A stretch of 64,000 nucleotides of DNA. Origin: Marsupella aquatica. Its lineage: Eukaryota; Plantae; Marchantiophyta. Within the stretch, counting starts at the first letter, position 1, and each line of letters starts with the position of its first letter. The notes below the pieces were generated by a model. That model was not told the origin of the DNA, ran no database searches, and worked only from the letters and a program-made list of their open reading frames with translations. Below are positions 1,481 through 26,736 of the stretch, one piece after another. The translations under genes were made by a program, and so were the position numbers. Location of the stretch: positions 22,417,844-22,481,843 of the forward strand of contig OZ316893.1 in assembly GCA_973895155.1 (NCBI GenBank). The letters run 5' to 3'.

Positions 1481-4102
1481 GGTAATTTATCTTTCGTGAA
1501 CACACTCTCAAAGAAGTCCATTACACTGGACTCAACAAAAATATGCCTAGAAGTCTTAGACTTGAACTGTCCAACATCTCGTTGAACACCAGTAGAAGCG
1601 ACCGAATCCCGAGAGGAAAATCCATGATCCGAAGATTTCTTTTTCTTTTTCTTTGTGCTGGTGGCATCTGCAGGTCGCACCATCTTCTCCGTGTTGGGAG
1701 GAGTCTGTTCATCAGAGACATCTTGTTCCCCCGTATCAGCTTCAGAGACTCCAGGAGTGACAGTCGTCTTTGCATCTTGTGTTTCTTCTCCATCTGATTT
1801 CCGTCCACCTAGAAAAAGATATAAAAATTTCCAAGATTAAGGTCCACATAACACCAGCGCCGGGCGCTAACCAAATTTCCCTACCGGGTGCTAACCAAAT
1901 AGGCAACTTGATCTGCAGCGCTCGTAAAAAAATACAGAATGCCAAGGGAAAATAACACCAGCGCCGGGCGCTAACCAAACTTCACAAAAATCAAGCAATA
2001 AAGGGACACCAACATATGTGGCGCTAAACAAAAAGTCACCCAAATATCCAAACTATTGAAGGGAAATTACAGAATGCTAATGAAAAATAGAAGAACCTCA
2101 CGTTTCTTGGATCTCGTTGATGGGCTGGTTACTCCAGTTTCTACTTTTGCTTTCGCCCGGGGTTTTCGATTCCTGACTACATGCAAAACTTCTGTTTCGC
2201 AATGTTTTTGCAGCTCGCTCGCCGAGGCATCTACATCTTCCGATAAACCTTGTTTCATTTCAGAGAGAACTTTCCGAGGCACTAAAGACTTTGATAATTT
2301 CAGAAATGCATCCTTTTCAGCTTCATCGAAAGGGGTGTCCCACTTATCTGTGTCAAGATACCATGGACAGTGGGTTATCTCCCACAATGAAATTTCTCAT
2401 GGTGGAATGTCCCCTTCGGCAGGGTACATAGAGTAAACTTTGCTAGAAGCATCCCCCTCTAGAACGGACCATTTCTGGAATGCAGGAGGGTAAGCCCAAA
2501 AATACTCTAGAGAACTGGTCTCCATCGCCATGTAGAAGCGATACAGATATCTCTTGGCTCGCTTCTGGTTGCGAATGGTATAGTCTTCCTTGTCTCCATA
2601 CTTGGACTGCCAAATTGTGCTAAAAAACTTCGCCTTCACTGTTTCACCTTATGTCTTGAAATCATTGGTGATGTTCAAGACCAATGCTTCAAACGTCTCC
2701 ACTCCTCCTAGCGATAGACGATCAGTAGGTAGGATCGATTGGACTTGCGAAAGAGATGTCTGTAACATTGCAATTGCAATTCCTTCCACCAAACTCCACA
2801 TGTGCCATGTATGACACCACTGTTTAACAGGGTCATCATTCACACTCGGGGGATGGTAAAATTGTTTTCTGAGCTCGGGTGTACAGTGAGCGACAAGAAG
2901 AGTACAGCGCAATTGTGGATCCAAGTAGGAGACAGCAGTGAATAGACGCGCGCGGTCCATTGTACATACTACAAAGTCCGGCTTCTTTTCTCGTTTGTTC
3001 CTCTCCGTAAGAATGTACATTTATGCACAAGTTGACAGAAAATCACCAAACTCTGGGCTTATCAGGGGGTAATCTTGGATGTCTTTATGCTCCACTCCTT
3101 CGTTGCCTCCTTCATCATGGCAGCATACCGCTTACCAGTCTCTTCAGATGACCACGGGCAACCTTGACTTGCCGCAGCAGCCAAGTCAAGCTTAAATTGA
3201 AGTGAATATGACTTAATCTTGTTTTCACACAAGATGTAAACCAATGCTTCCAATGGCATTTGCTTGGTATACCAAGACCCCTTTCTTGTTTTGGCACGAA
3301 CAGTTTGAAATCGCTTGAAGCTTCCGAGATCGATGATCGGCTTGTAGGCCTCCAAGTCATGAGTTAAAATCCTATTGATTCTATCGGCATCGAGAATCCA
3401 CGATGGTTCCACCACAGCTTGCCCTAACCTGTAAGATATAATGGCAAATATTAGCGCCTAGCGCTAACTAACCTTGCAAAAATCAAGCGCAATTGACCAA
3501 ATTCAATAGCGTTTATGCAACTTGAGGAATACTTACTGGTTCACCGTGTGCATAGCCGCTTCAAGCTCAACAAGAGAACCTCGATCTCCCTTAAAAACAG
3601 TGCATTGAACACACGGATGGTACTTGATATTGTCTGGATTCTCATTTGTTACTTGGGTCCACGAGTAGAGTCGATGATTCCCGTCAAAAACACAGAACAT
3701 CTTATCCTTCAGAATGTGGAAATCTGGATCAGTAGCACATTCTGCTTCAAACAAGTCGTTCTGGGCAACCCAAATAGCATCCCAGGTCTCCCGAATTTCA
3801 GGCGTGCAGAATTGAACGACTCCTTCTGAATCCGTGGGCTGGACGTAAAACCGCATCCCAATTGAAGAGTTGTACCTAGAGCTCCGAAACGAATCCTTGA
3901 GCTTATCGATAGATGCACTATTTTTCTGTAAAGTCCGAACGATTTCCATGTGAACAAGCCGACAAAGAGGGATACGCGACGGCTCTTTCTTCTCCCCTCT
4001 GAAATCGACTCCAAACGACATTGCATATTTCTCGATCACAGCATCCATGGACAGGACTCCCTCGCCCCCGTCCTCCATCGCAAAATCTCCGTAAGACTCC
4101 AT
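1480..4102 (-). pseudogene. Multi-exon gene with an N-terminal ParB/Srx-like domain; internal stops; 3' end truncated against the gypsy fragment
   Basis: Exon ~4102-3536 encodes IPLCRLVHMEIVRTLQ...IDKLKDSF...MFCVFDGNHRLYSW...PCVQCTVF, a ParB N-terminal pattern with the GxHR motif. GT-AG introns are visible at ~3535-3430 and ~2098-1809. ORFs 3062..3415, 2649..3020, 2397..2639, 2067..2387 and 1465..1683 are collinear on the same strand, and the middle three share one frame broken by single stops. Confidence 0.7.
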
Positions 4103-4283
4103 GATGCCTCATTTTGGCTTTGGAATCGCCTGACTAATGTTTCGCAAAGAGTTCGACGCACACGAACGAGTGACTCTCCGAGTATAAACTGATCCGGAGA
4201 ATGAGGACTCAGATGTTTCAGAATGGCCAGGAGAATGATTCTCCATGTTTGTTTAAGATGCATACACACGGGGAACTCGCACC

Positions 4284-4338
4284 GCAACGTGCTTCTTGCA
4301 TGATGCAACGTGCTTCTTGCGTGATGCAACGTTTCTTG
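4284..4338. repeat. 21-bp tandem repeat, about 2.6 copies (GCAACGTGCTTCTTGCRTGAT)
   Basis: Read directly upstream of the ParB-like ATG. Confidence 0.85.
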
Positions 4339-5500
4339 TGGTGCTGTACCGATATGGACAAATGATTGACAACGATCCTAAACGTGCGCAGAGGTCGTTC
4401 TAACGATCAAGGAAGACACTATCGCGAAAAGATCTTATCTGATATACCCTGTGGCAGACCGACATGTATCACAAGTACACATCGAAAAGCACAAGCATCC
4501 AAAAGCAGACCTACTAAAGGTTGACACTTGTCACATTTTAACTAGTTTATAGGTACTCGTGAATATATTTATCCAAGAATTTGTTATAAATTGTAACAAT
4601 AAACAGTCAAAGTTACCGTTTAAAAAGACCGTTTATGTCAGTATTCTACTTCAATCTAATATTAGCGCCTAGCACTATTATTATGCTAGACTGAAATATG
4701 TCTTTAAATGAAGGATTTTAATAATAGCGCCTGGCGCTAGTAACATTGTACTAAAAAATCATGCGAATGAATGGACTGAAGCGTGAAAGATTTTGTAATA
4801 AACGGATCCTATTTCTACAAAGTTTATGAAAGTCCCAGGCGCTATTTTTCTTTTAGTCTCAAATAGGGCTCAAATGTGTAGATATCAATAATAGCGCCCG
4901 GCGCTAGTAACGAGGCACCTCAAAATGGTAGATGTTTGGACACAAAATGTGTAAGTTTCTATAAATAATGTTCGAGTTCATCTTGAAAATTTTATGACTT
5001 TTATGATAGCGCCTGGCGCTATTATTATGATATCTTGTACTCGATCTCAAATGGATCTATTTTAATATTAGCAGAGGGTAATATTGTCGTCTGACATAAA
5101 TAAGGGGGTATTTCCAAGGAAACCCAATATATTCCCAGGAAACCCAACACCTGTCGTAGGATGTTAACCTGTGTCAGTAACCAAAATGGTCGATGATCTT
5201 TGCTTTTGTTGTTCATTTTTTGGGCTATTTCAGATGTGGACATTGCTAGCGCCTGGCGCTACTAAATTACCCCGTTGGTTACAACATCAAAACCATTAAT
5301 TAAATAGTAACTTTCCGCCGAATTGATGGTTTTGTCATTTCTTGAACGGTAAGAAAATCCGTACCCAACGGATCCTATAACCGCTCGATGGCTCTTTCCG
5401 TTTGAGACTTGGATTTAGAAGAAACCCTCAACCATACAATCTAGCTTCAGTTTACCATGTATCACTATTTTATGTAGTCGGTTATCTTTGGGGAGCTAGA

Positions 5501-8500
5501 ATGTCTTGCATTATTGGAATAACGTGTCCGAATATAGGTGACGTTGTGACGATCCCTGTGTCGATTTCCGAAACCAAGAAACGTGTTAGTGATAATTACC
5601 TGTGTGGAAGATTTGGGGTGACTAGAAAACATATTTTGAGTATCAGAACTTTGAACGATGGGCCCGCTCATTTTGATACTGAAGCGGAGGACGTTGTTTG
5701 GAATCTCGAATATGGCGTGGAGTACTTGATTTTCATTCAACTAAGGGACATCGTTCATGTCAAGGTCGAGAGTCACCAGGTCGCTCACGATGTGATTGAC
5801 CTTACGTCCGATGCTGAATGCTCTGAGGGTTCTCCACCAATCTCAAAGGGCGGTGAGGTCAATAAGGAGGGTGGAAGTACCAGTTTGTTGACGCCCCAGG
5901 TACCCCCCGTATTGATTTCTTCGGAGGAGTCTGATGATGGAGACACTCTAACTCGTCCTGTTCTGGTTGTGTACAGAAGAAGTGCACTTGATGCCTTGTT
6001 GAAGTCAACTGGACAAAGTGAGTTAGCGCGCTTTGTTAGGTCCGAGGCATTCATTCACAAACAGGTTGAATGCTTACCTGTCGAGTACAATGGGAATACC
6101 ATATTTGAGCTTCCACCTGTTCAAGGTGTTGGCTCGAAAGGGGATCGTCTGCGAAACATGGATCGATGCAAGGACTGCTACCTTTGGACTAGAATCCTTC
6201 CTACTTCTGCTAATGTCGTTCCAAAAAAGATGTGGGAGTTTGGGAAAGTAAGCTGTAGTGGTTCTCTCGAATGCCGAAATAGAGCATGTGAGTTTTACAC
6301 CAGGACTCAAGTCAGAAACTGTAATGGATGGGATGGGACCCCCAAGCTCTCTGGTTAGCATTGTCCTGGAAGTTTTATCGATGCTGGAGGAATTGTTTGT
6401 CGCTATTGCCTTCAAGTTCCATTTTGTGTTGAGTCTTGTCCAGCAAAAATGTTTTATATGTACCCGCAAGTTTTGATAGAAAATGACACTGCAAAACACA
6501 TGTCACGACTTGCAATCCATGTGGGAGTGCACAACCATCCATGTAGGAAGGTCTGGTCTAGAACTGCTGAGAAAATAGCAATAGAAGAAATACGGAGACA
6601 GCATGAGAAGTCTCCTTCTTCTACACCGTGCATTTTGAAAAATGAGATCACTGGATCTTTAATGGATGCCGTAGGTGAGTCTATGGATGACATTTCAAAG
6701 CTAGAAGAATCAGAAATCTGGAAATCACTTATGCTCGTTTCAACGCCTCAGAAGTTTTCTGCATTATTTAAGAGCGTTCGCAAAGATCAGGTTGGTCGAG
6801 GTGATTTGGAATATCTAGTTCACATGCAGAAGAATGTTACGTTTCCTTTTCTCCAAAGATATCTTCTTCCTGGGCAGGGCTGGAAAGGTGATAGAGCGCA
6901 TATTTTCAAAATGACTATCAAAGGTCATGGATTGGGACTAGATTTACTGCGTCAGATGAAGAAAGGGGGGCCTCTAGAAGGAGCATGGGTGAGCTTTGAC
7001 GTGATGAAAAGGATGTCCAAAGAATGGAGTACTTTTAGTGCACATGTGTATGACCATAACTATCGAGCTTTGTGCACAATATTTACTTGTGAACTCAAAG
7101 CAGAGGACACTACATCGCTTGAGAAAGCTTGGAGGTTGATGATCGAAGTCACTTTGGAGAACGGTTTAAACGGTGTGGAAATCCATGGTTTCATGGCGGA
7201 TAACGCTCAGGCGGGATGGATAGCGGTTAGGAATGTCTTCTTTGACGGCCATCCAAACCCGGAGAGAGAGCGATCAGATGCATTCCACTTTTATCAGTCT
7301 TTGCATCGGCACTCTATCGAAGGAGTACTTGAAGAAAAACGTGTTGAACATAGAATCCTTTGGGACAAGTTGCGGAATGCCGCTTCATTTGTGGAAGCCT
7401 ACAGGGTTTCACGAGAGATTGATTCATGGTGGAGATGTGGGAATTGTATTCCTGGGAAACTTAGAATGTTGCAAGGATGGATCGCTTGGTGGGTTGTGAG
7501 GTGGCGTCAGTGGGGAAATTTCATTCGTTTGGTGAGTCAATGTATACTAGCGCCTGGCGCTAGTATTAATATCCCTTTTCTAATTGTGATATTTACTGAT
7601 GTTTTTGCTAGCGCCGGGCGCTAACGTACGAATGACTTGATAGCTTCTTCAATCTTTACAATCATCATGAAAACATTCATATCTTTCGTCCGCCCATTTT
7701 GAAGTTCCGCTTTTTTATTCGATATATTGTACTGAATTTGGAAAACTCTTTTCAGAGCAAAAGTGCACTTGAAGGGGGGATGATTCCCAATTGCACTGGT
7801 TCTGAAGCTGTTCACGGAATCATGAAAGCATGGCAGGGAAAGAAAACAGTTGGTTTGTTCGAAGGATGTAAGACCAATCACAACAGAGCAATCTCACAAA
7901 TAGCAGCCTATAAAGCATATCGTGAAGGGCTCCATCGGGGTACCGGTCCAACAGTGTTTGAATTGGCTTTTCGTTTGGCTGACCAGGCAGGGTCCCCGAA
8001 ACTCTTCGAAGAAGCCTCTAATATGTTACTCGCAAATGCAGCAGAATTTGATTTGGAGAGGGATTCTCCGTTGAATGGGGATTTTGTGACAAAGTCTATG
8101 AAAAGAAAAGGTCCGGCGACCAGGAATGTCTCTCCACAAGACTCCCATCGACATGACACTGTTCTCATAACTACGCCAAACACCCGAGGTTGCAAGAGGA
8201 GAAATTTGACCTCAGCCGAGTTTGAGCACATTCCGATACTTAGAACTCCTCCTTCGAATCCAGTTATCGATTTGTCTGAAAGTGGCTCTCCAGTTTCCCA
8301 TCATGTCACTCAATCTTCTGAAGTTCCAGAAAGTGTTCCGAACACCACTCCATTCATTCCTGTAGACACTTCGCTTTTTGAAGTGGACGTTGTACCCGGG
8401 TCGTGGCATTTGCGGAGAGTTTCCAGAAATGGTGTTGGACCACAGTGTAATGGGACGTTGTCTGGAAGTTGTGATCGAGATGAGTGTCGTAATCAAATTA

Positions 8501-9249
8501 AGAAGGTCGGATATCCTTCAAATGCAGGGGTTGTCGGAATAGTCGTCAAAGGTTACCGCTTATTCAGAGGTGAACACCATCCAGAGCTTGTCTGGTTCTG
8601 CCCCACTCGTGATTGCTGGAAGAGCCACCCTCGTCGAGGTATTGTGAACCTCCCTACTTGCCCAGACTTTTTGCCAATACAGAAAGGCACTCATCTTTCA
8701 AGTCTGGAGTTGAATTTCCTTCACGAGCAGGGCATTGAAGTCTCGAGAGGAGGTGCTATTTCACGTTGTCCTTCTCCATTTGAACTGAGAATCAACATTG
8801 ACATTTTCCCTAAAAAGATCAATCTTGCACAAGTCAACATCCGTTTTCGAACGAGAAATGGGCGTGCGATGAGCTCCAGATCAAATCTCACTCAGGAATA
8901 TCATAAAAGGATTGAATCAGCAACGAAAGAAACAATGACTTTGATCAAAACTATGGAAGTTTCATCGGGAAATTCATACGGGAAACGATTCCAGATACGC
9001 ACACATGCACATTTATGAACTGCAAATACTTACTGGGTGCAGATTTGCATTTTCCCTTGTTGCTCTTGTGAAGATTTCTTTCGTCGACATTCTCGAGGGA
9101 AACCTTTCATGCCATGTAAACACTTGTACTGGGTTTACAAAGTTATCTACAAGCTTGATCCTGTGGATAATATCCTCCCAAGCCAACCAATTCTTACCAT
9201 TGCGGAACTGCGTTATATTCTAGCGAGGCATAATGATGCTGGTTTATAG
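5501..9249 (+). mobile_element. Mutator-like (MULE) DDE transposase pseudogene with GCM-like Zn domain and C-terminal SWIM finger
   Basis: ORFs 5402..6358 and 6449..7624 are one frame split by a TAG. GCM/WRKY-like C and H pattern: SCSGSLECRNRAC...CRYC...C...HVGVHNHP. Candidate catalytic residues FDVMKR, FMADNA and GSEAVH, plus the MULE-type DAFHFYQS. Intron 7532-7755 (GTGAGT...TTTCAG). Frameshift near 9018, then SWIM CCSCEDF...PCKHLYWV. Confidence 0.8.
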
Positions 9250-9875
9250 GAAGGCTTAGTATTCTAGTTTACGTTCAACGGGTATGTAGGACTTGTCGTT
9301 TCGTAACGGTAACTTTGTTTTGGTTAGCGCTCGGCGCTAGTAAACAACATTTGGTTGCTTTTCAACACAGCTGAATCTTTTGTGGGTTGCACAAAAACTT
9401 AATTTGTTTTTACAATTTTTTGGATGTGTAAATTTCATTGTATGGGTAATGGAGATTTCTTTGTATTCATTTGTCACTTGGACTTCAATTTTGTTAGCGC
9501 CCGGCACTAGACTTCATTTCCGTACTTGGTTTCAGTTTGTAGTTTCTAGGTTTGAACGTGTGGATTTCTTTCGCATGCATTCTCGAGGATGACCTTTTCT
9601 TGCCTTAGAAACCGTTATCCTCTGATCATTCCGGTAGATGGTGAGCGGGTATTTGTTAATGATATTTTGTAATGGTATCAAACGCTTGGTTAGGACTAAG
9701 CGCTAGTAAAGGCATCTTCCGATAATTGTCGTTTTCCCCATCTTTTTGAGTTGATGTTGAATTTGACCTCTTTGGTTTGGTCCAAAATTAAGCCGTTTTT
9801 TCTCAATGATAATACCAATTCTCCTGTTTTGTTCAACTATTTTTCCTGTTATGATCATCACTGTTTCCTGTTTCC

Positions 9876-11291
9876 TGTCACGGAGGTCGGGCCCTTAGTT
9901 AAGGTTGGTGATATATACACCCTGGGCCCTCACTCTTACTATATTAAGTGAACCCCCCTGAGAACATACACCCCCCGTGTACCCCTTCTTAATATTTTTG
10001 TTCACAAAAAAAATCTCCTTGTTAATGTAAAAATATTAACTTTTCCTATTAAATTTCATCCTTTTGTAAATTATAATAGAGTTTTTCAAGGAATTGAAAA
10101 CACCCTTGAATTTTTAAAATTGCAAATATCATACTGAAATAGATGAGACTGCATAGGGGACTTGTATGGCTGTTACGCCCAATGTTCAGGATACATACAA
10201 GAATACACTACAAGAATAGTTCTTCCTATAGTATACAAAGAGGCATGCACTCTCCTCTTAGTGTTTGCAACAGTGCCTCTAAACTTCTAGTTTCATGAGT
10301 ACTATATGTATAATTGAGGAATAATACTCCAAAGTCTGAACCAACTATAACAAACATTGGTTGAGCACCCGATACCCCCCTACACACGCAAACACATCTA
10401 GCCTCATACCTGGCTGTTTGATTCAAGAGAATTCAAAAGTAATCTTGTCCGTCCATGTGGGGTTGATCCATGAATCCCCATCAATCCCAGATTCCCAACA
10501 TGTACTCAACTCCCGACTTAACTCCTAAACATGTGGGTAAACATGTCTACCCAAAACCATTTGTCCCACCATAAAGGGTCCCACAAAACTAAACTTGCCT
10601 TAAGACAACAAATAATTAAATGTCTGATTTACTATATGAACACGTGTGCAAATGAGGTGATGAGTGTATGTGTCCCAACCATATAGTGACGTGTGTACTT
10701 GGCATTTTGGGTACCCTTGTGTAAGAATAATGTGACATGTATTTGATAAGAGCCTTATTACTAATATTGTGATGAATGTATATACAGGGATGTTGCCTAC
10801 TTTAAAAATTATTATAAAACTTTGTTTGTATTACATTAAAAATACCCATGCGTTGTTCGCACGTCCTCCTTGTATTAGTAATGCTGAGGGCCCAGGGTAT
10901 ATACAAGGCATGTCCTTAAGCACTTAGGCCCAAAAGTAGGATGTCGCCCGGTCCTTCTTAAGTATACTCTTATCATGAACCCTTGTAAGACTTTGTACTA
11001 TACTAGTCTTTGTGTGGACCTTTAGAGTGATTCCAAGAACAAAACCCATGATGTCCTAGAGTGTTCACCTTCACAAAGTAGCAAGGTTACTTTTCATAGT
11101 CTTTAACTAAACCGGAAAACACTGAAAGTCTTTTATAGTCTTTAACAAAACCTTGGCAATGGGTGCGAGTCATTTAAAGTATGGAAGAAGGACTTAGTGG
11201 GCTTAGTCCTATAAGGTATGGTCTAAATTACCCTGGTTTCTACTAGTGGCAATATGTTATTGTTGATTCCACCTCAGTGCGGTTCTTGACA
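9876..11291. mobile_element. Possible LTR remnant (TGTCAC...TTGACA) interrupted by the 978-bp element
   Basis: TGTCA/TGACA inverted ends typical of LTRs; no matching TSD found. Confidence 0.25.
9920..10897. mobile_element. 978-bp non-autonomous deletion derivative (MITE-like) of the P-like element
   Basis: TIRs CCCTGGGCCCTCA...TGAGGGCCCAGGG and a perfect 8-bp TSD TATATACA (9912-9919, 10898-10905). The 200-290-bp subterminal regions match 11761-~11975 and ~26045-26328. ORF 10226..10426 (GAQPMFVIVGSDFGVLFL) matches the transposase segment GAQTMFVTVGSDCGVLFL. Confidence 0.93.
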
Positions 11292-12694
11292 TCCATCAGA
11301 AGGATGCAAACATTGACTTGAGCAGGTATATTAATCGTCCCCATGTGGATGACATTTTAACCTCCAAGTTTTGGACGTTGTTCTGCTCACAGTACGTCCA
11401 GCCAAACAAGACCTCATCAGAAGAAGCATAAGCAAATGGAAAATGTCTAAGGATGCAATGTGGATCCATAAGCAAATGTAAACAAAGGAAGTAATTAAGT
11501 AGAATTAGTAGTGAAACTTCAAGTAGAAGATAGCAGATAGAGTATTTAAGTGCAGTAGTAGGCGTGAATAATCTTTGTAAGATGGCTGGGATGATAACAA
11601 TAGAAGGCGCAACAATCTTTGCTATATGGAGTACTATAGGTTTAGGGTTTTGTTACAAACGGTGCAGTACAAAGTTCTAAAGGTGATGGTAGGGACTGTG
11701 CTCTAGGCATAAGAGCAAGGCAAAGAAGGCAATAGGAGTAGGGCGATTGAATGTTCTTAGCCCTAGGCCCTCACTCTCTATATATTAAGTGAACCCCCCT
11801 GAGAACAGACCCCCCCCCTTGTACCCCTTCTTAATATTTTTTCTTCCATTAAAATATCACTTGTTAATATAAAAATATTAAATTTTGCTATTAAATTTTA
11901 CCCTTTTGTAACTTATAAAAGGGTCTTTCAGATAATTGAAAATACCCTTGACTTTTTAAAATTATGAATATCATATAAACATGCAAACTACTCAGAAACA
12001 TAAATTATGTGTAATGATGTTATTTTGCATAAGAAACCTGATGTGGGTACAGGTTTCATATAGATTAACAAAATTAGCACCAGATAATTATAGTATCGCT
12101 GGTTGCTTGTAAACCTCATAAACATGAACTAATTAAATTAACACTAGAATGTTCTAGTGCCTTGGAAGAATAATTGCAAGTATATTATTGCATATACATG
12201 TATACTATTGAGTATGCATGACTGTATACTGTTGCTAAATTGTTCTAAATATTATAAACTAAGCATGATTCTTAGTCTGTAAAAATCTCCCTCAGTCTGT
12301 ACAAATCTCCCTGACTCAAGTAAAGTTCCCCATGATCATGACTAAGCATGATGATCAATGTGAAATCACTAGCTCAAATACAGTTCTTGGCAGCTTCTTT
12401 TGAACCTGATACATCAAACCACACATTAATAATTGATTTTGGACCATACTCATTACACAAGAAAATCACTGCTGAGAAATATGAGAATAATACCATTAGG
12501 TCCTCTTTGACTAAATTGTTACTTAGACATGCTAGGTAATTTCTCTGTCATCTCTACAATCAAACAATTGATTGAAATGTCAGAAGCATTATCAAAATTT
12601 CTATTCAAAAGCTTTTCATACCAATTACATACTTAAATGGTACATGCAATAACCAGGCAATAACTATGACAATTGCTTACCCTGTTATATAAGA

Positions 12695-15600
12695 TTAAGG
12701 AATTTTGTTTTTGGCAAAATTATCAAGAGCAACTGCATCATCTGGATGCAACTGAAAAACTCCTGGGCATAGTGGATCCACTGTCAAGTGAACTGTTGAT
12801 ATAACACAGTCCAAATCAATGAATTGTGGATCACACACATTGTAGGCAAATTTATGCCTACTAGTTCCAATTGGAGAAAACCATTGGAACATAATTTTAC
12901 ATGCCTCCTCACCACCAGGCCTATCAAGCAAATCCAATTCACCTCTTGCTCTGTCCTGTTTCCCACCATATTTTTTGTGTATACTTTGTATTCTGCCTAT
13001 CCACCACATATATTTTGGTGTCGTATTTGAAGACATTGCAACAGCTGCACCTCTGGGCCTCTTTGGATTTGGAACAAGATCATCTGATCTACTACCAATT
13101 CTCTTTCCTCGTCCTTTTCCTCTCAATGTTCATGAAATTGCCTCTGAACTTCTGGTTTCAGGAGCACTGTATGTATCATCCAAAAATAATACTCCACAAT
13201 CTGAACCTACTGTAACAAACATTGTTTGAGCACCTGCCCTCACATTGGGTTTGTCCACTAAATTGTTGAAGTAGTGATTTTGCTTTATCCGGGTCAATCT
13301 GTCTTTACTGAGGAGAGGGTTCAGGGTCAACTGGCTAACCAAAGTACTTTTGTAAATGGACCGATTTTGATATTCTACTGTTGGCTTCACATCTTGTCTT
13401 GCTGCTCCATATATCAAGTCAGAATGCATGATGCCCATGGTGGCCTCCATTTGAGCAGCAACTCCCTCTACATCTGGGTCTGCATATATCAAAAGTTGTT
13501 CTGTTGGGACAGGAGACTCGGAGTCCTCTTCTACAACTTCTGTTGGAACTGATGAGGATGCAGGCTCATGAGACGTGGTTTCACTTTCCTCAGATTCCTC
13601 CACATCTGCCCCTCCATCTGCTAATGTATCAACATTCACATCACACCAACTACCAAACTTGACCCCTTTAGCCTCCATCTTCCATGCGGAATTCCACCAC
13701 ACCTTGTCTCTACAGGATGTGGAAGGGTTCATTTGTAACTCAGTGCATGCATTTTGGGCAAGCTGAAGACCTTCTTGCAAAGCAATCACTATTTCTCCAT
13801 TTGTTTCAATCCCTGCATAGTCCATTTGATCTGCTACAATAGGAATCCCTGCTGGGATTGTAGTGAGCTTCATCCAAATGTTTTCATGTTTTTTGTGGCT
13901 CTTCCCTGCACCCATCATTCCTTCAGCCAGATCCATTGCAGCCAATCAATTTTGATTGGTAGCGCATTCTACTAACTCAGCCAAGTCATAACTTCGCTCA
14001 TGACCATTCATACCTCCTACTGCAGAAAAAAACTGCTCACAAGCATCTGACCCAGTCAAATGCAATGGTACTGGAAGATGTCAAAAATTGTCCCTGAATT
14101 GGATTACCAACAGGACCACAAAATGAACTGACATTTGAATGTCAAGGAAACTTTGCATGAGAATGCAATTTTTTGTGAAACTGGTTGGTTGTGTATTCCC
14201 TCCCACAAAATGGTTTCCATGAAAGCACCATTGACGCCATAGTCTAAAGAAAAATCCAACCTTCCCACAATGGACAATTCTCTGTCGCAAACTGAGACTA
14301 GTATTTAGAAATATATCAATGTAGTCTGCACATATCCTAGTGTAAACTTCTGTCCCAAGAGTCTGTTCAACTCTTGCATCACCACGTTGGCGAAGCATCT
14401 GTAAGGAGGACTGTACTTTGCGGCTACAGAGTCGTTGTGCACTAGCCCAATTTTGCCTATCTTTCCTTGACTTGTCCTCTTCATTCAAGCCATGATCACT
14501 GTTCAGGTACACCTTGTAACAAGATATGATGTGACTCAAGTTCGCCATTTCTGCTCCTAATTTCAAAATACGAGAAGTAGAATCCAATGGGTTCACTAAC
14601 TTCTTCCCATTATGAATAAAATCTTGATCGTGGAGTCCATATGCATGGATCAATGGTCTAGCAGTGATCATAGAGTGAGTCAATGTCCAAGCTTCCCACC
14701 TCAGGTCTTGTCTTGGCCCTGGTATTCCTTTTCCAGAGTAGTCTTCCAGCATAAGCTTTCTCCTCCGTGCATCCCCATCACTGGCATGACCCAATAATGG
14801 CCCCACTGACTCGAGGCAATGAGTTGTCCACAGTGAGGCTAGGGTATTCCATTGTCGCCTGACCCATGGAGCATCAAACTTGTTACATGTACCCATCCCC
14901 AATATGCACAATCGAGGGAATCCAGTAACAAGGGCATTTACTATCAAACACCTTGCCTAGTGAGCTACAACATAACTGTCAAATGCATCTGCAATGTTGT
15001 TGAAGCCAACTTCTCCTTCCCCCACCATGATCTCCAAACCAACACTACACTCATGGTTGGTTTTTGTCCCACAAAACCCAAGAAGAGTATCATGTTTAGG
15101 CAGCCATCTGCAACCAATAGCAGGCGGTCTTTTCATTAGTTGCTTGTTCAATATTTTTGTGTAACACAAAAATATTAAACAGAAAGAATGACCAGAGCAA
15201 GAGGAGGCAAGAGTAGTCACCTCACAGTTCTCTTCACACAAGTCTCATCCTCTGCCAAATAGCATGGAATGGGTCCATGAATATTTAATCGAGCTTTCAA
15301 TTTGGAAAAAATTTCCGCAACAAACTGGAATTGCTCTGCATGAATTCCAGCACGAAACACTGCCATACCTCTCCTATCTCGTTGAAGGGTGTTGATAGTA
15401 GGACCAATTCCATTGGTTGCAAGACAATCAACTACACGCCTTCCACCATGTAAAAATAGTGTTTGACAGAGAAGCTTTGTTCCAGGCTTAAAACGATATC
15501 CTATCTTCTCCCTATTGATGTTTTGTGCTATGTCTGACAACATATCCCACAGAGCTCCTCTCCCACCAAAGGCACCTCGTTTGTGTGCTAGTATTATTGA

Positions 15601-17376
15601 ATGACAGAATTTCAAAACAGTTGCTTTGTTTGGTTCTTGATAGTGAAGACACACTTCACTAATGCTGGGGACCAGAGCCTTTGCCATGAGTAGCTTGTGA
15701 CTCAAGATTCTCTGCAATTTTTGCTCTCTCAAAATTTGGTTCCTATAGCTTTTGGCTTGGTACTGAACCTCTGGAATAGTTAGGTAGTCTAACCGCCTGC
15801 CTTTACCAGTTGTTCTACAACCTCGTTTCTCAATAGCTTTGTACTCCCTGTAAACTCTGAGTCGAAAGTCCTGCTCTGTTTTTATGCTAAAACAGAGCGA
15901 ACAGGTCAAGTCAATAAAACCTCCACCAAGTTCTGATATTCGCCTACAATCTCTGTGTCTAAATAAACCAGAGATCACACAGGTTTCTTGAGTTGTCAAA
16001 CACCACACCTCTACCCTCACTATGGGCTCTGCATACCAATTCCCATCTAATTTCAGTTGATCATTTAAGATTTCCTTGATAGGCCTGGTATCTGAACCAT
16101 ATTTCACCACATCACGCCAGAGACCCCAGCATAGCAAAGAGAGATTGTCAAGAGTACCTTTGTCTTTTGAACTAGAACTGGAAGCTCCTCCAGTTGAGGG
16201 GCGAGTTAAGAACCCAGCTATTTTCTGTTGTTTCACATCTCTTCCATCTGGTGCACGAGGTCTCCCTGGCCTTCCACTGTGCACTGGATTGCCCATAGCA
16301 GGCCTTTGACTTCTCATGACATAATTAAGATGACTCAAGCCTCCCACATGGGCTTCCAGATTTGTTTCCAAATTGCGTTGTTTTGGAATCAATGTTAGGT
16401 TTTCAGCACAAAACTCACAACAAAGTTTGAACTTGACCAACTCTACAGGCTCTTTGTCCACATCACCTATTACAGTAAATGTATCATGCCCAACAAGCCC
16501 ACCAGCAATCTGTGCTGAGTTAATCTTCTCCACAATCTTGACATGTTGATCAAGTATGGCTCTATCATTCAGAGTACTAGTCTCAGCCCTCTGAGCAATC
16601 ACTTTGTGATCCACTTTCTCACCCCTATTAGATGCTACACGTCTAGCATGCTTTTTTGATGGCAAGTGTTTCACTCTGAAGTTTGTAAACACATTATTGA
16701 CCATAGTTTTATCCACACCCTTGACACTGCTACATGCAACTGCTTGATATCTGTAGTCACATTCGCAACACTCAATATGCCCACGAGGCACACCATCCTT
16801 GTCCCACGTTCTGACTTTCCATTTGTGGTCCACACACTTAAGAAAAGTCATCCACTCTCTCAACTTTGTCACAGAAGTCTCCCATGCTATCTTTAAGTCC
16901 TGAGACATCAATACAGAGTCTAGGCTGACTTGAGACTCAGCGGATTGGGCTCCACTTGCAGGCTGGTCCTCCTGGGATGAAGCACTTGCAGGCTGGGTCT
17001 CCTGGAATGGAGCTCCACTTGCAGGCTGGTTAGAGGGTTCATCTATTGCAGGAGTACCAACTTGGTCTCCAGTAGATGTGCTACCAGGTCCATTGGATGC
17101 ATGGCTGCTTCCAAGGACTTGTTGTGCCCCATTCTGCACATCTCCTTGGACAAAATTGTTGGAGTATTTTGGGACAATGACAATCTTTCCACCACAATCC
17201 TCTACTAGATTATACCTTGCAAGGTTGACGTCCATGAAATGGAACTCAAAGTCAAAACCTGACTCCAAGTTCTTTCTAGCATCATAAAAGGTTTCACCTA
17301 TCTTGTAGCTATATGATGTCAAAGGTTTACGTTCCCCTGACTCTAGGTCTGCTTGAAATATAGTGGCAGGCGGCAT
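12695..17376 (-). pseudogene. P-element-superfamily-like transposase (about 1,500 aa reconstructed), two coding exons, four in-frame stops
   Basis: Motifs LAEDETCVK, GHASDGD, QDFIHNGKKLVN, DRQNWASAQRLCS and GSDACEQFFS parallel the P-type DE / D / DxxHxxK / GTP-binding insertion / ExFFS pattern. One intron at ~15220-15109. ORFs 14957.., 14081.., 13130.. and 12695.. share one frame. The N-terminal part has two CxxC...H...H Zn-finger-like motifs. Confidence 0.8.
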
Positions 17377-18066
17377 CCTCTATGTCCCACGTTTAATTCC
17401 CTATCCAAATGACATATGCCAAGGGCATAGGCCTGCAAACAGAGCACAACACAAGAGAGAAACACCAGAATCAAAATGGACTCAATCAAAGCAACACAGA
17501 CAGTTATCTGTTACTTTGTAAACCCACAAACTCATCCAATGACAACAACATGGGGATTTATGAAGATTTGGTGCCCTACAAGTAACCTAAGGAAGCCCAT
17601 CTATCAAGACCGCATCCACCAGACCAATTCCACAAGAGCCTTGCCCCATCCCGGCCATTTTTCATGGTGATTGGCTTGTAAAAGGTCCATTGCAGCTTTC
17701 TCCTTTCGGGTGGGAAGGGACATACCCTTTGCATGCAAGAACTCTGGTTTCAGCGTAAGCACAAGAGAGAGTGGGATCTACACATGGCCGCTTCAGTTTG
17801 TCCCAAAATAGCTTGTCCTAGATTAGCTTGTCCCAATTGAGCTTGTCCCAGTTTGTGCTTGGTCCATGTGCAGTCGAGGCCAGGCCCATCACTCCAACCT
17901 CTCTCCTTGACATGTGCAATGGGCTGTTTGGAATTTATTTACTCACAGACTTGCTCAGAGAGGCTGGACCTTGCTTGAATAGTGACATCCCTTGGACAAC
18001 CCATACCCTATGGCTAGGCTCTAAGTAGTCTTTCCCCCCCACTTCCAGGCTACCTGCACCTGCTTC

Positions 18067-18984: not shown

Positions 18985-21900
18985 TGTCACGTCGTAGGCT
19001 TCGGCCTTAACTCAGACTTCAGCTTAGACGGGCACATCCCTCGTAAATCTGAGGGTTCGGGCAGGAAGGGAAGCACGTAATGCACCTTATTCTCGTAAAC
19101 TAGCGCTAAGTGCGCATATTGCTAAATACGGACACCTCCTAGGTATGGTTTGTGTTCCGCCGCCGGAACGTACCTTAGTCGATAGCAGGATCGACCCCGG
19201 CTTAAGGGCTTCTAAGCCTTCGTGCTGTCCGCCTTCGATCCAGATTCGATGATACAGGTCCTCAACCCGTGCTCGCAACCACTTACCCGCAGGCTGCACC
19301 CTGTGCACGTCTCGGGTAGTGCGTTCGGCCCGGCGCTGCCACCCATATACGAGAAACCCCCACACATATGCGCACACATGCATACAATCTCGATTTACAC
19401 GAAGGAAAAATGATGGGAAAGGATTTTTACTACAAAGGGAACATATGCGTACACTTAGTTGACACGACAGCCCTGGAATGCACAGGTTCAAGGCCAAGGG
19501 TGCACACTACAACGGAGCCCGGCTCCGCACTCGCCCGGCAAGCTTAGTCCTACCCCCTCCCCTTGGTACTCTGTCATTCCTAGAGGTCGGGACTCCCCGC
19601 ATGTCCCGCGGATGTCCGACTCTGAAACTAAAAACCCCCCCCCTGCCTCTACCGAGGGGTGCACTAAATACTAAGAGCCGAGGAACGGGGCGTCCTCCCG
19701 CCGAAGATTCGCTGACCAAGGTCCTAACTAAGCTGACAGTCAGGCCGGAAAACGGCTGTGTCTTATTAGAAGATCCTAATCTACGCAGGCTGGACAGCAG
19801 GGCAGCGCTGCCGTACCTAAGGCAGGTGCCTGTCCCAAGAGCCTGACTAAGCCAATCCTAATCCTAATCTATTCCTACTCCGCCGCTAATGCCTGGCACG
19901 CTTGCTAGAGCCGCCCGAATGGGAACGGCCATCCCGCTGCCTTCGAAGCCTGTCATTGTCCGCTTTGAGGAGCTGGACCTGGTCCAGCAGAGATTCGTTC
20001 TCTCGCCTCGCCGCGTCCGTCTCCTCTGCTGCCTCCTGACATGCCTCCTCCAGCTGCTGGGCGTCGCTCGCCAGTTTACTCGCCAGCTGGTCCTGCTTCT
20101 CGGCCTCGGTTTGGAGCCGCGCCATCTCGGCCTGCAGCGTGGCTATCTCCGTCGCGTCCCGCTGGGCTCGCTCCTCGGCCTCCTCCAGGTCTTTCTGCCA
20201 GGTGACAGCTTGTTTCTTCAAACTGTCAATCTGGTTCCGGAGTCGAGTAATCTCGGCCTCGTTCCCAGCTTTGGCCTGTTCGGCTAGGGCGGTAAGAGCG
20301 TACGCCTTTGCTAACAACTCATCGGCGGCTGCAACCTTGGGTCGTAGTTGCAGAAGCTCAGCCTCTTGAGCCGCCACTTCGTTCTTTAGGTACACGGACT
20401 CCTCCCGGTACCGCTCTATCCTCTGAAGGGCCTCCGACTGGGCCCGCCCTGCCTTTACGGCGGCAACCAACTCCTGATTGAAGAAACAGGCTACCTTCCG
20501 AGCCATGAACTCCCCGGTATCCCGGGCAATTTGATGAGAGAAATCTCCCAGAAGCCCGTTCAGAAACGTACCCTGTACGAAGAGTTCCGGGTGGTCCAAG
20601 TTGTGCCTGTCCGGATTTGGGCACGGGCAGACATCAACACGCGCAGGGGCCGGGGCAGTGACGTCCAGCCCTGGGGACATAACGTTGGAAGGGGCCGGAG
20701 TATCCTCCTGCAGCGATGTCCGGTTCTCCGGAATTGCCACCGGCGGGTCCTTGGGAGGCCCGGGTTCGGGTAAGACCTCTGCCGTACCAACTTCTGTACT
20801 TAGCCCGGCTAGTTGGGTCGCATCAACGGTTGCGACGACCGACCCCTCCGGCGCCTCCTCGGTTACGATTACAGCTATTTGTGGAGGTGGGGTGGGTGAA
20901 GCTGGCGTGTCCACTGGACTTCGGGCCTCGGGTTGGGGCCGTCTCTCCAATGCCGGAAAAACCCACCTAGCTGGGACCAGCTTTGTAACGTTGAGGCGGG
21001 GAAGGGTTCGTCGATCAAACCGGGCATACCACTCAAGAATGATTTCGATGTGGCTAGCGAAATACGCCTTCCCGCCAATGTACAGCGTCTTCCTTCGCCG
21101 CTCCATCTCTTCATGGAATTTCTTAGCGAAGTACGACGCCCACTTCCTAGGTCGATAGTTCTCGACCTGGATGACCTGGGCGGCGGAGATCTCCCCCCGG
21201 GGTTCCATCAAGTGGAGAGCGTACCTCTGGAACTCCAGCCGCTCAGCTATCTCGGGCATGAGGCAGGTCCTCATCACGAACCCGTTGTCTACTGATCCCT
21301 CTGAGGGAAAACTTGAAGATTGGTACTTGGCCCCCTTGCCCCCGGGAGCCCGTGATTCGACTCGATGGTCACCTTCGGGTAACCCGAAGATCATCTTGAG
21401 CCGTTCTTCTGTGAGGGACATATTCCTTCCCCGCAGCCGAGTCTGTTGACGTACGTCGTCATAATTCTTGACGAATTCTGTCATGTCCTCCCCGTAGTAC
21501 CTGCAAGTGTTCCAGGGGAGAGAGGCGAGGTGCTCAAATCCCTGAGTCTTCAGGTACACCGCATGCTTGGGATGGAGGATGTTGCTGTGAACGTTTTCCC
21601 CCATGCGATGCATCGTTACCTTGGCTACGGCTACCGTGGCTAACGGTAACCCGGATGCACTGGCGGATTCCTTTCTCTTCTTTCCCCGTGACTGACTCGG
21701 GGAAGGTGATACTTCCCCATCCTCCCGATCGGGCCTGGGGAGTGCCACTGCGGTTGGTAACGGGCCCGGGGCGGCCACGGTCACCATGTTGTCTGCTGGG
21801 GCCGCTCCTGGGGTCAGAGCAGGGGGTGGGGACGGTATAGTGTCGGCCCCCCGAGCGCTTGTTCCTCTGGGCCGCCTGGTCAAGGGTGGGGTAGCCTCGT

Positions 21901-22988
21901 CGTCATCGCTAAGATCCACCGCGTTGATGACGGAGCGTACCTGTGCTGGTTGGGTGATAGGTGGTGGGGTTTGGCTAGGCTGCGGCTGAGGCTGAAGCTG
22001 AGGTTGCATGGGCACGGGTACGGGTACGGGTACGGGTCCGGCTGAGTTGGTCATGTTGGTTGATGGCCGAGTTCCCATGAAGCTCTGTAGGTGCTGGTAG
22101 AAGTTCTCCGAAGCGAGTGCGGACGCCCTTGTCGAACGGTTGGTACTGGACTCGCCGTTAATGACTGCCCGAACCTGGGCAGGGATGTGGTCGAAGTGAT
22201 GTCGCTGCAGGTCGATTGTACCCGGGATATTGAAGACCTCGTCCGGAAGCCGAAGCAATGCTTCCCAGAACCCGATATATTTGTCTCCGTCAAAGAAGTA
22301 CCCAGATACCTCGGCTGGTCGGTAAAGCTCGCTCTGAGACGGGTAGTCAAAGTTAAGGACGTAGTGGTGTCGTCCTGCTAGGCGGATGGCTCTCTCGTAT
22401 TCGCGTTCGATCTCGTATCGGCGCGGGTTGGCGTGTTTCAATGAATCGGCCAAGTGCCTTCCGGTAGATAGGAACTGCGTCCAGAATCGAATGGCCGAGC
22501 TGGAGAGGATCGTGTGCGACATTCAGAGGAGATAGTAGTGGCGACCTAGAGAGAACGAGAGAGCTGGGGTCGAAGCTGGCGCGCGGACTGATGGACTGGT
22601 GCACTACAAAGGGTTGGCTCCCCTTTTATACTTTAAGGGCTTGTCGATCCCCGACGTCTCCTCGACGCCCATAGGTTGAACCGCTCACGCTTGTGGTGTA
22701 CCGGCCACTCCGCCGGTCTGAGTCAGCGTGCGTCAGTGGCCGCTTCCTTAAGTTCGTTATACGGACCCGAGGGAGGGGCCACTCCATGCTCATAACCCGG
22801 GTGTGCGAATAGCGACCCGCCGCCAGCCCGAAGCTGAAGTCCCCCTTATTGCCTAATGATGTCCTACCCCTAATGATTACCTAAATACTGTCGTCATGCT
22901 AATAATAGCGGCCTAAGACCCACCTAACGCGCGTGCCGAGCGCCGTTAGACTGAATCACTCATTAACCACCGTACCGGCGGCGTCACA
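18985..22988 (-). mobile_element. 4,004-bp solo-LTR-like insertion nested in the P-like element
   Basis: Termini TGTCACG...CGTCACA and a 5-bp TSD AGGTG (18980-18984, 22989-22993). GC-rich against its flanks. No second internal copy of either terminus seen. Confidence 0.8.
19886..22522 (-). CDS. Intact 878-aa retrotransposon accessory (Athila ORF1/env-like or plant-transposon-domain-like) protein with C-terminal coiled coil
   Basis: Single uninterrupted ORF. The core EFVKNYD...RLRGRNMSLTEERLKMIFGLPEG resembles accessory ORFs of Athila/Tat elements. Pro-rich linkers and a C-terminal heptad-rich region. TATAAAAGGGG lies on the minus strand at 22620-22630, about 100 bp upstream. Confidence 0.65.
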   Translation of the reverse strand: MSHTILSSSAIRFWTQFLSTGRHLADSLKHANPRRYEIEREYERAIRLAGRHHYVLNFDYPSQSELYRPAEVSGYFFDGDKYIGFWEALLRLPDEVFNIPGTIDLQRHHFDHIPAQVRAVINGESSTNRSTRASALASENFYQHLQSFMGTRPSTNMTNSAGPVPVPVPVPMQPQLQPQPQPSQTPPPITQPAQVRSVINAVDLSDDDEATPPLTRRPRGTSARGADTIPSPPPALTPGAAPADNMVTVAAPGPLPTAVALPRPDREDGEVSPSPSQSRGKKRKESASASGLPLATVAVAKVTMHRMGENVHSNILHPKHAVYLKTQGFEHLASLPWNTCRYYGEDMTEFVKNYDDVRQQTRLRGRNMSLTEERLKMIFGLPEGDHRVESRAPGGKGAKYQSSSFPSEGSVDNGFVMRTCLMPEIAERLEFQRYALHLMEPRGEISAAQVIQVENYRPRKWASYFAKKFHEEMERRRKTLYIGGKAYFASHIEIILEWYARFDRRTLPRLNVTKLVPARWVFPALERRPQPEARSPVDTPASPTPPPQIAVIVTEEAPEGSVVATVDATQLAGLSTEVGTAEVLPEPGPPKDPPVAIPENRTSLQEDTPAPSNVMSPGLDVTAPAPARVDVCPCPNPDRHNLDHPELFVQGTFLNGLLGDFSHQIARDTGEFMARKVACFFNQELVAAVKAGRAQSEALQRIERYREESVYLKNEVAAQEAELLQLRPKVAAADELLAKAYALTALAEQAKAGNEAEITRLRNQIDSLKKQAVTWQKDLEEAEERAQRDATEIATLQAEMARLQTEAEKQDQLASKLASDAQQLEEACQEAAEETDAARRENESLLDQVQLLKADNDRLRRQRDGRSHSGGSSKRARH

Positions 22989-25900: not shown

Positions 25901-26736
25901 TGTGGGATGATACCAAGCCCGATACCAAGTTGGCCCCAAAGACCCCCGCCCAATATCTACTCAATTCCCAAACACGTCTCCCTAAACCCATTTGCCTCAA
26001 CTTATGGATCACAAACCCTAAACCAAACTTGCCTTAGGATAGCACATAATTAAATGATTGATTTAGTACATGGACATGTGTACTAATGAGGTGATGACAT
26101 GTGGACCAACCATAGAGTGACGCGTGTCCTATGCATTTTGGGTAACCTTGCGTAAAATTCTTGTGACACATATTTGATAAGAACCTTATTATTAATATTG
26201 TGCCAAATGTATATATGGGGATGTTGCCTACTTTAAAAATTATTATAAAAATTACTTTGCAATGTATTAAAAATACCCTTGCGTCGTTCGCACGTCCGCC
26301 CTGTATTAGTAAGACTGAGGGCCCAGGGGTTCTTAGCAGAAATTGGGATACTCATATATGCAAACCTGTTGGAAAAGGAAAACCCATGTTTAGGTTTATG
26401 ATTTGTGTTAGAGAAGGAGACTGCCGTGTATGGAACAAGGCAGGGCAACAGTTATTTGGCATGGATGGTGAAGCTTTCCGATGACATTTTACAACCAAGG
26501 AGGCTGTTGAGGAATTTTGCAAGGGAATCATGTCATCAAAATGGAACCTAGTGTTGGGACAAGAACATGATCATCGACAACATGCTAGTTGGAGGTTAAT
26601 TGCTGCCGAACAAGTAATTGTTTCTCAGAACATAGTTGAAACGGAAGGAACGCAAGACGTACAAAACTTGACCTCAGAAGTGAGGAACTTAACTATTAGC
26701 AGTTCTGAGATGATAGCTCCAGCTACAAACCTCATG

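Follow-up and report, generated by a model that had tools for sequence, protein, structure and literature searches.

A palindromic word confined to the non-coding DNA of a liverwort Mutator-like element, and a predicted ParB-fold accessory protein as its candidate reader

Introduction

ParB-type proteins bind short palindromes, and KorB, which loads at a palindromic operator, slides from there for up to 1.5 kb (PMC11790492). Anti-silencing that acts from motifs in non-coding DNA has been described for VANC, from the VANDAL elements of Arabidopsis, with hypomethylation demonstrated (PMC5735166). Self-recognition has been proposed for the ParB-methyltransferase accessory gene of Sola1-1_Ec32 in Ectocarpus (PMC12477816), and self-binding for PAG3 of a Bostrychia Plavaka element (EnSpm/CACTA), which has an N-terminal ParB-like domain and adjacent inverted repeats (bioRxiv 10.1101/2025.02.11.637652). 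Here we analyze 64 kb of DNA from the liverwort Marsupella aquatica (contig OZ316893.1, positions 22,417,844 to 22,481,843; this whole stretch is referred to as the window), in which a single Mutator-like element carries a transposase gene, a divergently oriented accessory gene and many copies of the palindrome TAGCGCC-N-GGCGCTA.

The idea that a transposon's ParB-like protein recognizes its own element has already been published for red- and brown-algal transposons, in the form of a proposal. The algal ParB-type accessory genes are proposed for the same role that we consider here, and the accessible parts of that literature give no tested target for them. ParB-helix-turn-helix-methylase fusions are also on record in chlorophytes and chytrids, and do not belong to the family of the window element (PMC4738411). 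A literature search found no land-plant Mutator element with a ParB gene and palindromes; Iyer et al. 2011, to which the Ectocarpus report refers for proteins of this type, and the supplements to the Bostrychia preprint lie outside that search and may bear on novelty.

Results

The initial annotation of the window described a 15-bp palindrome lying in introns and other non-coding DNA of one element and absent from exons and from the DNA beyond. When up to two mismatches were allowed, TAGCGCC-N-GGCGCTA matched 12 times, always between 1855 and 9509, and not once in the remaining 54 kb of the window; 100 shuffles gave a mean of 0.08 matches and a maximum of 1, which establishes the palindrome as real. 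All 12 matches fall in introns, in the divergent spacer or in the 3' region of the Mutator-like element and none in exons, so the described confinement holds. Given that 31% of the element is non-coding, this placement has p = 9e-7 under independence, although the copies are not fully independent. The half-site GGCGCTA is similarly distributed, with 20 occurrences among 2,596 non-coding 7-mers of the element, 0 among 5,735 exonic ones and 1 among 54,081 elsewhere. Across the 64 kb, no other palindrome with 6-bp arms is present more than twice. The core of the motif reads CCNGG.

Six copies are perfect (4725, 4892, 5007, 5247, 7548 and 7609), and two degenerate ones at 4830 (three mismatches) and 9691 (four mismatches, and already described as degenerate) bring the total to 14. 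The putative intron 2 of the accessory gene holds copies at 1855-1869 and 1959-1973, both with T1>C, together with half-sites at 1887 and 2020. The copy in the putative intron 1, at 3452-3466, deviates by G9>A, and other copies of the family carry G at 3460 and with it a perfect palindrome (among the 40 rows listed of ~1,900). Six copies occupy the divergent spacer between 4663 and 5261 (4663, with two mismatches, 4725, 4830, 4892, 5007 and 5247). Two perfect copies lie in the transposase intron at 7544-7623, the one at 7548 extending, as annotated, to a 23-bp palindrome (7544-7566) with 11 complementary pairs; at the other, 7609, many family copies have C for T, the variant also found at 1855 and 1959 (again among the 40 rows listed of ~1,900). 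The remaining three, at 9325, 9495 (one mismatch each) and 9691, are 3' of the transposase, within 9325-9705. The earlier inventory had most positions right, but it placed the first two copies at 1856 and 1960, one base past their T>C starts, and lacked the copy at 4830 and two half-sites, those at 1887 and 2020. Among mismatches, C>T or G>A changes make up 5 of 7 for the 12 core copies and 9 of 14 for all 14 copies, the predominance noted before; the motifs of the window copy are decaying, mostly by such changes.

Several copies sit in short local duplications. Over 32 nt, the stretches 1848-1879 and 1952-1983 share 97% identity; identity is 64-71% among the 66-nt units at 4663, 4830 and 5007 and 63-72% among the 46-nt units at 9299, 9469 and 9665. 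Duplication has thus helped to spread the word, and the initial annotation was too strong in denying tandem duplication. Across clusters, the copies share neither unit ends nor flanks. Within clusters, spacings of 61, 62, 62, 104, 105, 115 and 240 bp approximate whole helical turns of ~10.4 bp, and those of 170 and 196 bp do not. In a post hoc test, seven of the nine spacings deviated by no more than 0.16 turn from a multiple of 10.45 bp (p 0.01 with periods of 10-11 scanned; p 0.05 after removal of one duplicated spacing and addition of two from the related locus L001 described below), and since the test was post hoc we keep phasing as a hint only.

A search of metagenome contigs for transposase relatives gave one locus, L001, a 2-kb contig whose transposase is 59% identical to that of the window. 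Its transposase intron, which has the same position, contains three 24-bp palindromes (1106-1303) with the same half-sites as in the window and no central base, i.e., with a spacer of zero. When the two introns were compared, the motifs alone aligned at E <1 and the flanks were unrelated. Two of the three L001 palindromes carry one C>T each, which is the decay pattern of the window copies. Among family copies in sequencing run X3, 0 of 26 substitutions present at a share of at least 20% in the region 4640-5290 fell in motifs, which make up 90 of its 651 positions (p 0.019, or 0.039 counting five motifs), in a comparison diluted by motif-bearing contigs from other contexts. The word kept in an intron that is otherwise unalignable and the motifs free of substitutions support the earlier suggestion of a selected, element-associated motif, and we conclude that the motif is real and probably under selection. 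The non-coding DNA of the element outside motifs is not depleted of CpG, with an observed/expected ratio of 0.94 against 0.73 for its exons and 0.57 for the remainder of the window, a weak hint that the element's non-coding DNA is locally protected from methylation. The pattern of paired motifs was found in 0 stretches of the prokaryote genomes and viral contigs searched.

The accessory gene lies on the minus strand. Exon 1 (3537-4246, probable start 4246) encodes a low-complexity N-terminus and a domain with a predicted ParB/sulfiredoxin fold and the sequence FDGNHR, and is interrupted by a premature stop at 4109-4111. It is followed by a putative 108-nt GT..AG intron (3429-3536), placed by its splice sites, by an alignment gap and by the point, query residue 190, at which the match of many homologues ends. 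Exon 2 (2102-3428) encodes a helical middle region and has a frameshift near 3060 and three in-frame stops. A second putative GT..AG intron (1809-2101), placed by its splice sites, leads to exon 3 (1490-1808), which encodes a charged linker.

A HMMER search with exon 1 returned 211 relatives at an E of 0.001 or better, the best 150 of them listed, whereas a search by words gave no match among longer proteins. Of the named homologues looked up, the 11 with an organism on record come from Riccia sorocarpa or Adiantum, metagenome records aside, a range that points to a seed-free land plant. When folded with 62 relatives, the domain gave a model with a predicted local distance difference test (pLDDT) score of 94. 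The best 12 rows of a Foldseek search with this model are all sulfiredoxin, Noc or ParB, and VIA aligned it with KorB (Z 7.3, root-mean-square deviation (rmsd) 2.5, 92 aligned), PadC (Z 6.3) and sulfiredoxin (Z 6.3). Of the 62 aligned homologues, 50-61 retain the D-G-N-H-R box and 53-61 retain G-N-H-R. The Atlas ties exon 1 to DUF3723 and ParB_N clusters; in Pfam, no ParB family was found among the 62 aligned members. From the model, the N-terminus is assigned a ParB/sulfiredoxin fold with a G-x-x-R box, on scores that are middling and top matches that agree. A homodimer prediction for the domain, run without an alignment, gave no answer (score 0.00). In the model of a Riccia protein the middle region is helical, with mixed confidence, and KorB aligns with model residues 22-292 (Z 7.5, rmsd 5.1).

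The accessory gene is colinear with residues 147-758 of the Riccia sorocarpa protein P0156 (24-28% identity, E 1.6e-44), exon 2 reaching residue 758. The C-terminus of P0156 matches PF01555 at E 5e-5, which is under the curated cut-off, and several paralogues behave likewise; comparison of the P0156 sequence with those of solved structures yielded no significant match. By fold, this C-terminus resembles beta-class amino-methyltransferases (Foldseek E 2.5e-7; Z 15.2, rmsd 3.8, 195 aligned), its neighbours being M1.HpyAVI, CcrM, M.PvuII and the rotifer N4CMT. Based on these models, the Riccia homologues end in a predicted beta-class N4C/N6A methyltransferase fold. A motif for S-adenosylmethionine (SAM), FAGGWG (F-x-G-x-W-G), is kept with the whole fold in several Riccia subfamilies. 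The last accessory exon of the window ends in a strand-and-helix-like sequence at the point where the Riccia methyltransferase domain starts. At least 24 long Riccia paralogues of the ParB-methyltransferase protein were counted; in UniRef, P0156, P0164, P0157 and P0154 bear the name 'Trimethylguanosine synthase', an assignment that finds no support in the fold results.

On the plus strand, transposase exon 1 (5501-7531) contains a Cys/His-rich region, the acidic motifs FDVM and FMADN and the sequence DxFH, and has an in-frame stop at 6356-6358. Exon 2 (7756-9249) is 44% identical to that of L001 and contains a SWIM-like C-x-C...C-x-H finger and a frameshift near 9016. The GT..AG intron between them (7532-7755) has the same position in L001 and in three further relatives (P0001-P0003; 52-55% identity), and the relatives' loss of alignment at this one point supports it; the intron positions of both genes are putative assignments from GT-AG sites and homology. 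The acidic motifs and DxFH are kept in four of four aligned sequences, and in the Atlas the family or clan shared by the ten best family-bearing matches is MULE, with a top score of 0.93 and 154 shared features. HMMER did not match a MULE-type Pfam domain in the transposase, and Pfam gave no significant family for the segments of the element. C-x-C-x15-C-x-H was read directly at 9019-9246, where Pfam SWIM gave no match; a SWIM zinc finger at the C-terminus is a feature of Mutator-like elements. Transposase relatives were absent from the prokaryote genomes and viral contigs searched.

Stops and frameshifts in both genes indicate that the window copy is dead. Mutator-like elements have terminal repeats and an 8-11-bp target duplication. 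To the left of ~1490, mid-gene sequence of a Gypsy-like pol (RVT_1) takes the place of the left end of this element; the fragment (1-1490) is on the minus strand and has reverse transcriptase and RNase H-like matches. Because the join is mid-pol and no long terminal repeat (LTR) was seen at the junction near 1490, this is probably a deletion or recombination junction. It cuts accessory exon 3 near 1490, approximately where the methyltransferase domain starts in the Riccia relatives, and one contig of another sequencing run (X5) departs from the window at 1490. Three of the four runs gave 2,546-4,410 contigs matching the first 12 kb, neighbouring repeats included, and the remaining run gave 332; the family consists of many divergent copies.

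Elsewhere in the window, a separate ~1-kb element at 9914-10903 has 28-bp inverted ends (86%). An end related to these lies at 11761-11975, and pieces related to its interior lie at 13118-13234 and 25970-26328; the element looks like a family of miniature inverted-repeat transposable elements (MITEs). Three minus-strand open reading frames (ORFs; 720, 291 and 270 aa) at 13130-17379 gave no significant Pfam match and read like a second, broken DNA-transposase gene. An intact minus-strand ORF of 878 aa at 19886-22522 lies in a GC-rich stretch and has a C-terminal coiled coil and weak Pfam matches only.

Discussion

We lean, with modest confidence, towards the reading that the palindrome is a parS-like docking site for the element's own ParB-fold accessory protein, with an output that counters host silencing as VANC does. 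A dimeric protein is a plausible reader, because the word is two-fold symmetric and kept letter for letter; such a dimer would bind the two-fold symmetric palindrome, and the accessory protein, with its predicted ParB fold, is the candidate binder, in preference to the transposase or a host factor. After loading at the palindromes, the protein may spread along the element, whose length we take as roughly 10 kb, much as bacterial ParB clamps do. Intact copies of the window's family may end in an N4C/N6A methyltransferase fold, and the protein, by marking or shielding the element, would counter host silencing by 5-methylcytosine (5mC), the outcome being anti-silencing of the kind known for VANC.

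Several observations weigh against this reading. Foldseek gave no match at E 0.001 or better for the ParB-domain model, and the structural Z scores of its matches are all below 8, i.e., middling; a fold search that hardly probed the middle region identified no helix-turn-helix there. No accessory gene was seen on the 2-kb contig L001. The window copy is cut off before the methyltransferase domain, which it lacks, and the match of its last exon to the Riccia linker profile was not significant (6 of 300 shuffles scored higher), so that for the window's own family we can only infer the methyltransferase. At the putative catalytic motif the Riccia proteins have DLPT, DMPT or DMPS where DPPY or SPPY is expected, and they may therefore be inactive. 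Depth peaks over the motifs and loose ends at motif edges reveal that the word also occurs in other flanks; motif-bearing contigs from these contexts pile on the motifs, which dilutes the substitution test and leaves room for a dispersed repeat. The CpG hint is weakened, since the Gypsy fragment is also high, at 0.88. Finally, the motif can fold as a hairpin of 6-12 bp.

Among the alternatives, it is unlikely, though worth serious attention, that the palindrome is a site for the transposase or a host transcription factor, serving synapsis or autoregulation, with the ParB gene as unrelated cargo. The transposase is the one gene seen on L001, in whose transposase intron the word is kept, its Cys/His-rich regions could bind DNA, and the shared promoter region holds six copies, with another three close to the probable right end. 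For Mutator transposases, however, the bound sequences are the terminal repeats, and Ac/CACTA sites are concentrated near ends, whereas 11 of the 14 copies are internal; moreover, the same element encodes a protein with a predicted ParB fold, and proteins related to it bind palindromes of this kind. Rather improbable is the explanation that the word amplifies itself as filler, or is a tiny mobile fold-back repeat, and persists only where it leaves reading frames unbroken. Carriage of several copies by local duplications, absence from exons, which is expected of any insertion, and the occurrence of the word in other flanks in contigs are all in its favour, but such a repeat would have to be reconciled with 0 of 12 matches in the other 54 kb, much of it non-coding, with the lack of common unit ends or flanks across clusters, and with a half-site that is unchanged in the L001 family, in an otherwise unalignable intron, despite its richness in mutable CG/CHG sites.

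We consider it very unlikely that the ParB protein binds the palindrome in a family whose methyltransferase fold is dead or absent, acting as a scaffold or as a repressor of the divergent promoters; this explanation has the binding step in common with the docking-site reading and differs in output alone. The atypical Riccia catalytic motif and the missing domain in the window speak for it, as does KorB, a sliding clamp that exerts repression from its operator (PMC11790492), and the retention of the SAM-binding motif and the whole fold in several Riccia subfamilies speaks against it. A hairpin, whether in pre-mRNA (splicing, small-RNA avoidance) or as extruded DNA, is likewise highly improbable: five of five folded copies form a stem with a 3-4-nt loop (z -3.6, -0.35, -1.1, -2.7 and -4.1), 5 of the 14 copies are intronic and a change of spacer between families would be easy for a hairpin, but two of the five folds are no better than shuffles, nine copies lie outside the putative introns, the stem letters are identical in both families with no compensatory changes, and Rfam gave 0 matches.

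The docking-site reading can be extended into a more specific proposal, tentative and on balance doubtful, in which Mutator-like transposons of seed-free land plants would encode a fusion of a bacterial-style ParB clamp and an amino-methyltransferase that loads at family-specific, parS-like palindromes in introns and spacers, slides along the element and writes N4-methylcytosine (4mC) or N6-methyladenine (6mA) that blocks host 5mC silencing. If true, this would be an enzymatic anti-silencing system independent of VANC. With this element come a defined target word, a naturally occurring variant that has another spacer, and annotated full-length homologues in the liverwort Riccia sorocarpa, which makes direct tests possible of self-recognition, of the behaviour of a CTP clamp in a eukaryote and of 4mC/6mA written by a transposon.

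Compared with ParB-parS and KorB-OB, the element has in common the ParB/sulfiredoxin N-terminal fold, the G-x-x-R box and short palindromes dispersed over its length (PMC11790492), and differs in being a eukaryotic, intron-containing transposon in which no ParA was seen. Reading of the palindrome by a central helix-turn-helix, CTP-dependent loading of the clamp at the site and sliding belong to the bacterial systems. MpDN4MT1 of Marchantia is a precedent for a prokaryote-type amino-methyltransferase fold in a liverwort, but it belongs to host genes, has a TSPPY motif and acts genome-wide in sperm, whereas the Riccia ParB fusions have DLPT or DMPT (bioRxiv 10.1101/2021.02.12.428880).

In layout, the element is like VANDAL/VANC. 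Both combine a Mutator-like element and an accessory gene with a short motif in introns, intergenic and terminal non-coding DNA, and in both the motif has spread by local duplication and differs between families; VANC motifs, in contrast, are asymmetric and 8-9 bp long (YAGTATTAY, AGTTGTCC), and the word described here is a GC-rich palindrome of 14-15 bp (PMC5735166). The accessory protein also differs, having a predicted ParB fold and no Pfam family, and it is for VANC that hypomethylation, a protein-induced and sequence-specific loss of 5mC, is demonstrated. VANC homologues carry DUF287/DUF1985 domains, and no such Pfam match was found in six window segments or in the long homologues. Because a VANC-type domain is lacking and the motif is palindromic, the element is not a member of VANDAL/VANC.

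Our comparison places the window system closest to the ParB-methyltransferase gene of Ectocarpus Sola1-1 and to Bostrychia PAG3. The Riccia homologues (~1,200 aa) have the accessory-protein layout of Sola1-1_Ec32, a brown-algal Sola element to which the present land-plant Mutator-like element, with its defined palindrome, is likened by layout (PMC12477816). Membership of the Plavaka PAG3 group was considered and rejected: the homologues end in a predicted methyltransferase fold, and the transposase look-alikes are MULE-type, not EnSpm. PAG3 resembles the present system in combining, in a transposon accessory gene, a ParB-like N-terminal domain with inverted repeats; it differs in its C-terminal putative 2-oxoglutarate (2OG)-oxygenase, with the methylase in a separate gene (PAG2), and in its repeats, which form tandem arrays beside the gene, whereas the palindromes described here are dispersed in the introns and spacers of both genes (bioRxiv 10.1101/2025.02.11.637652).

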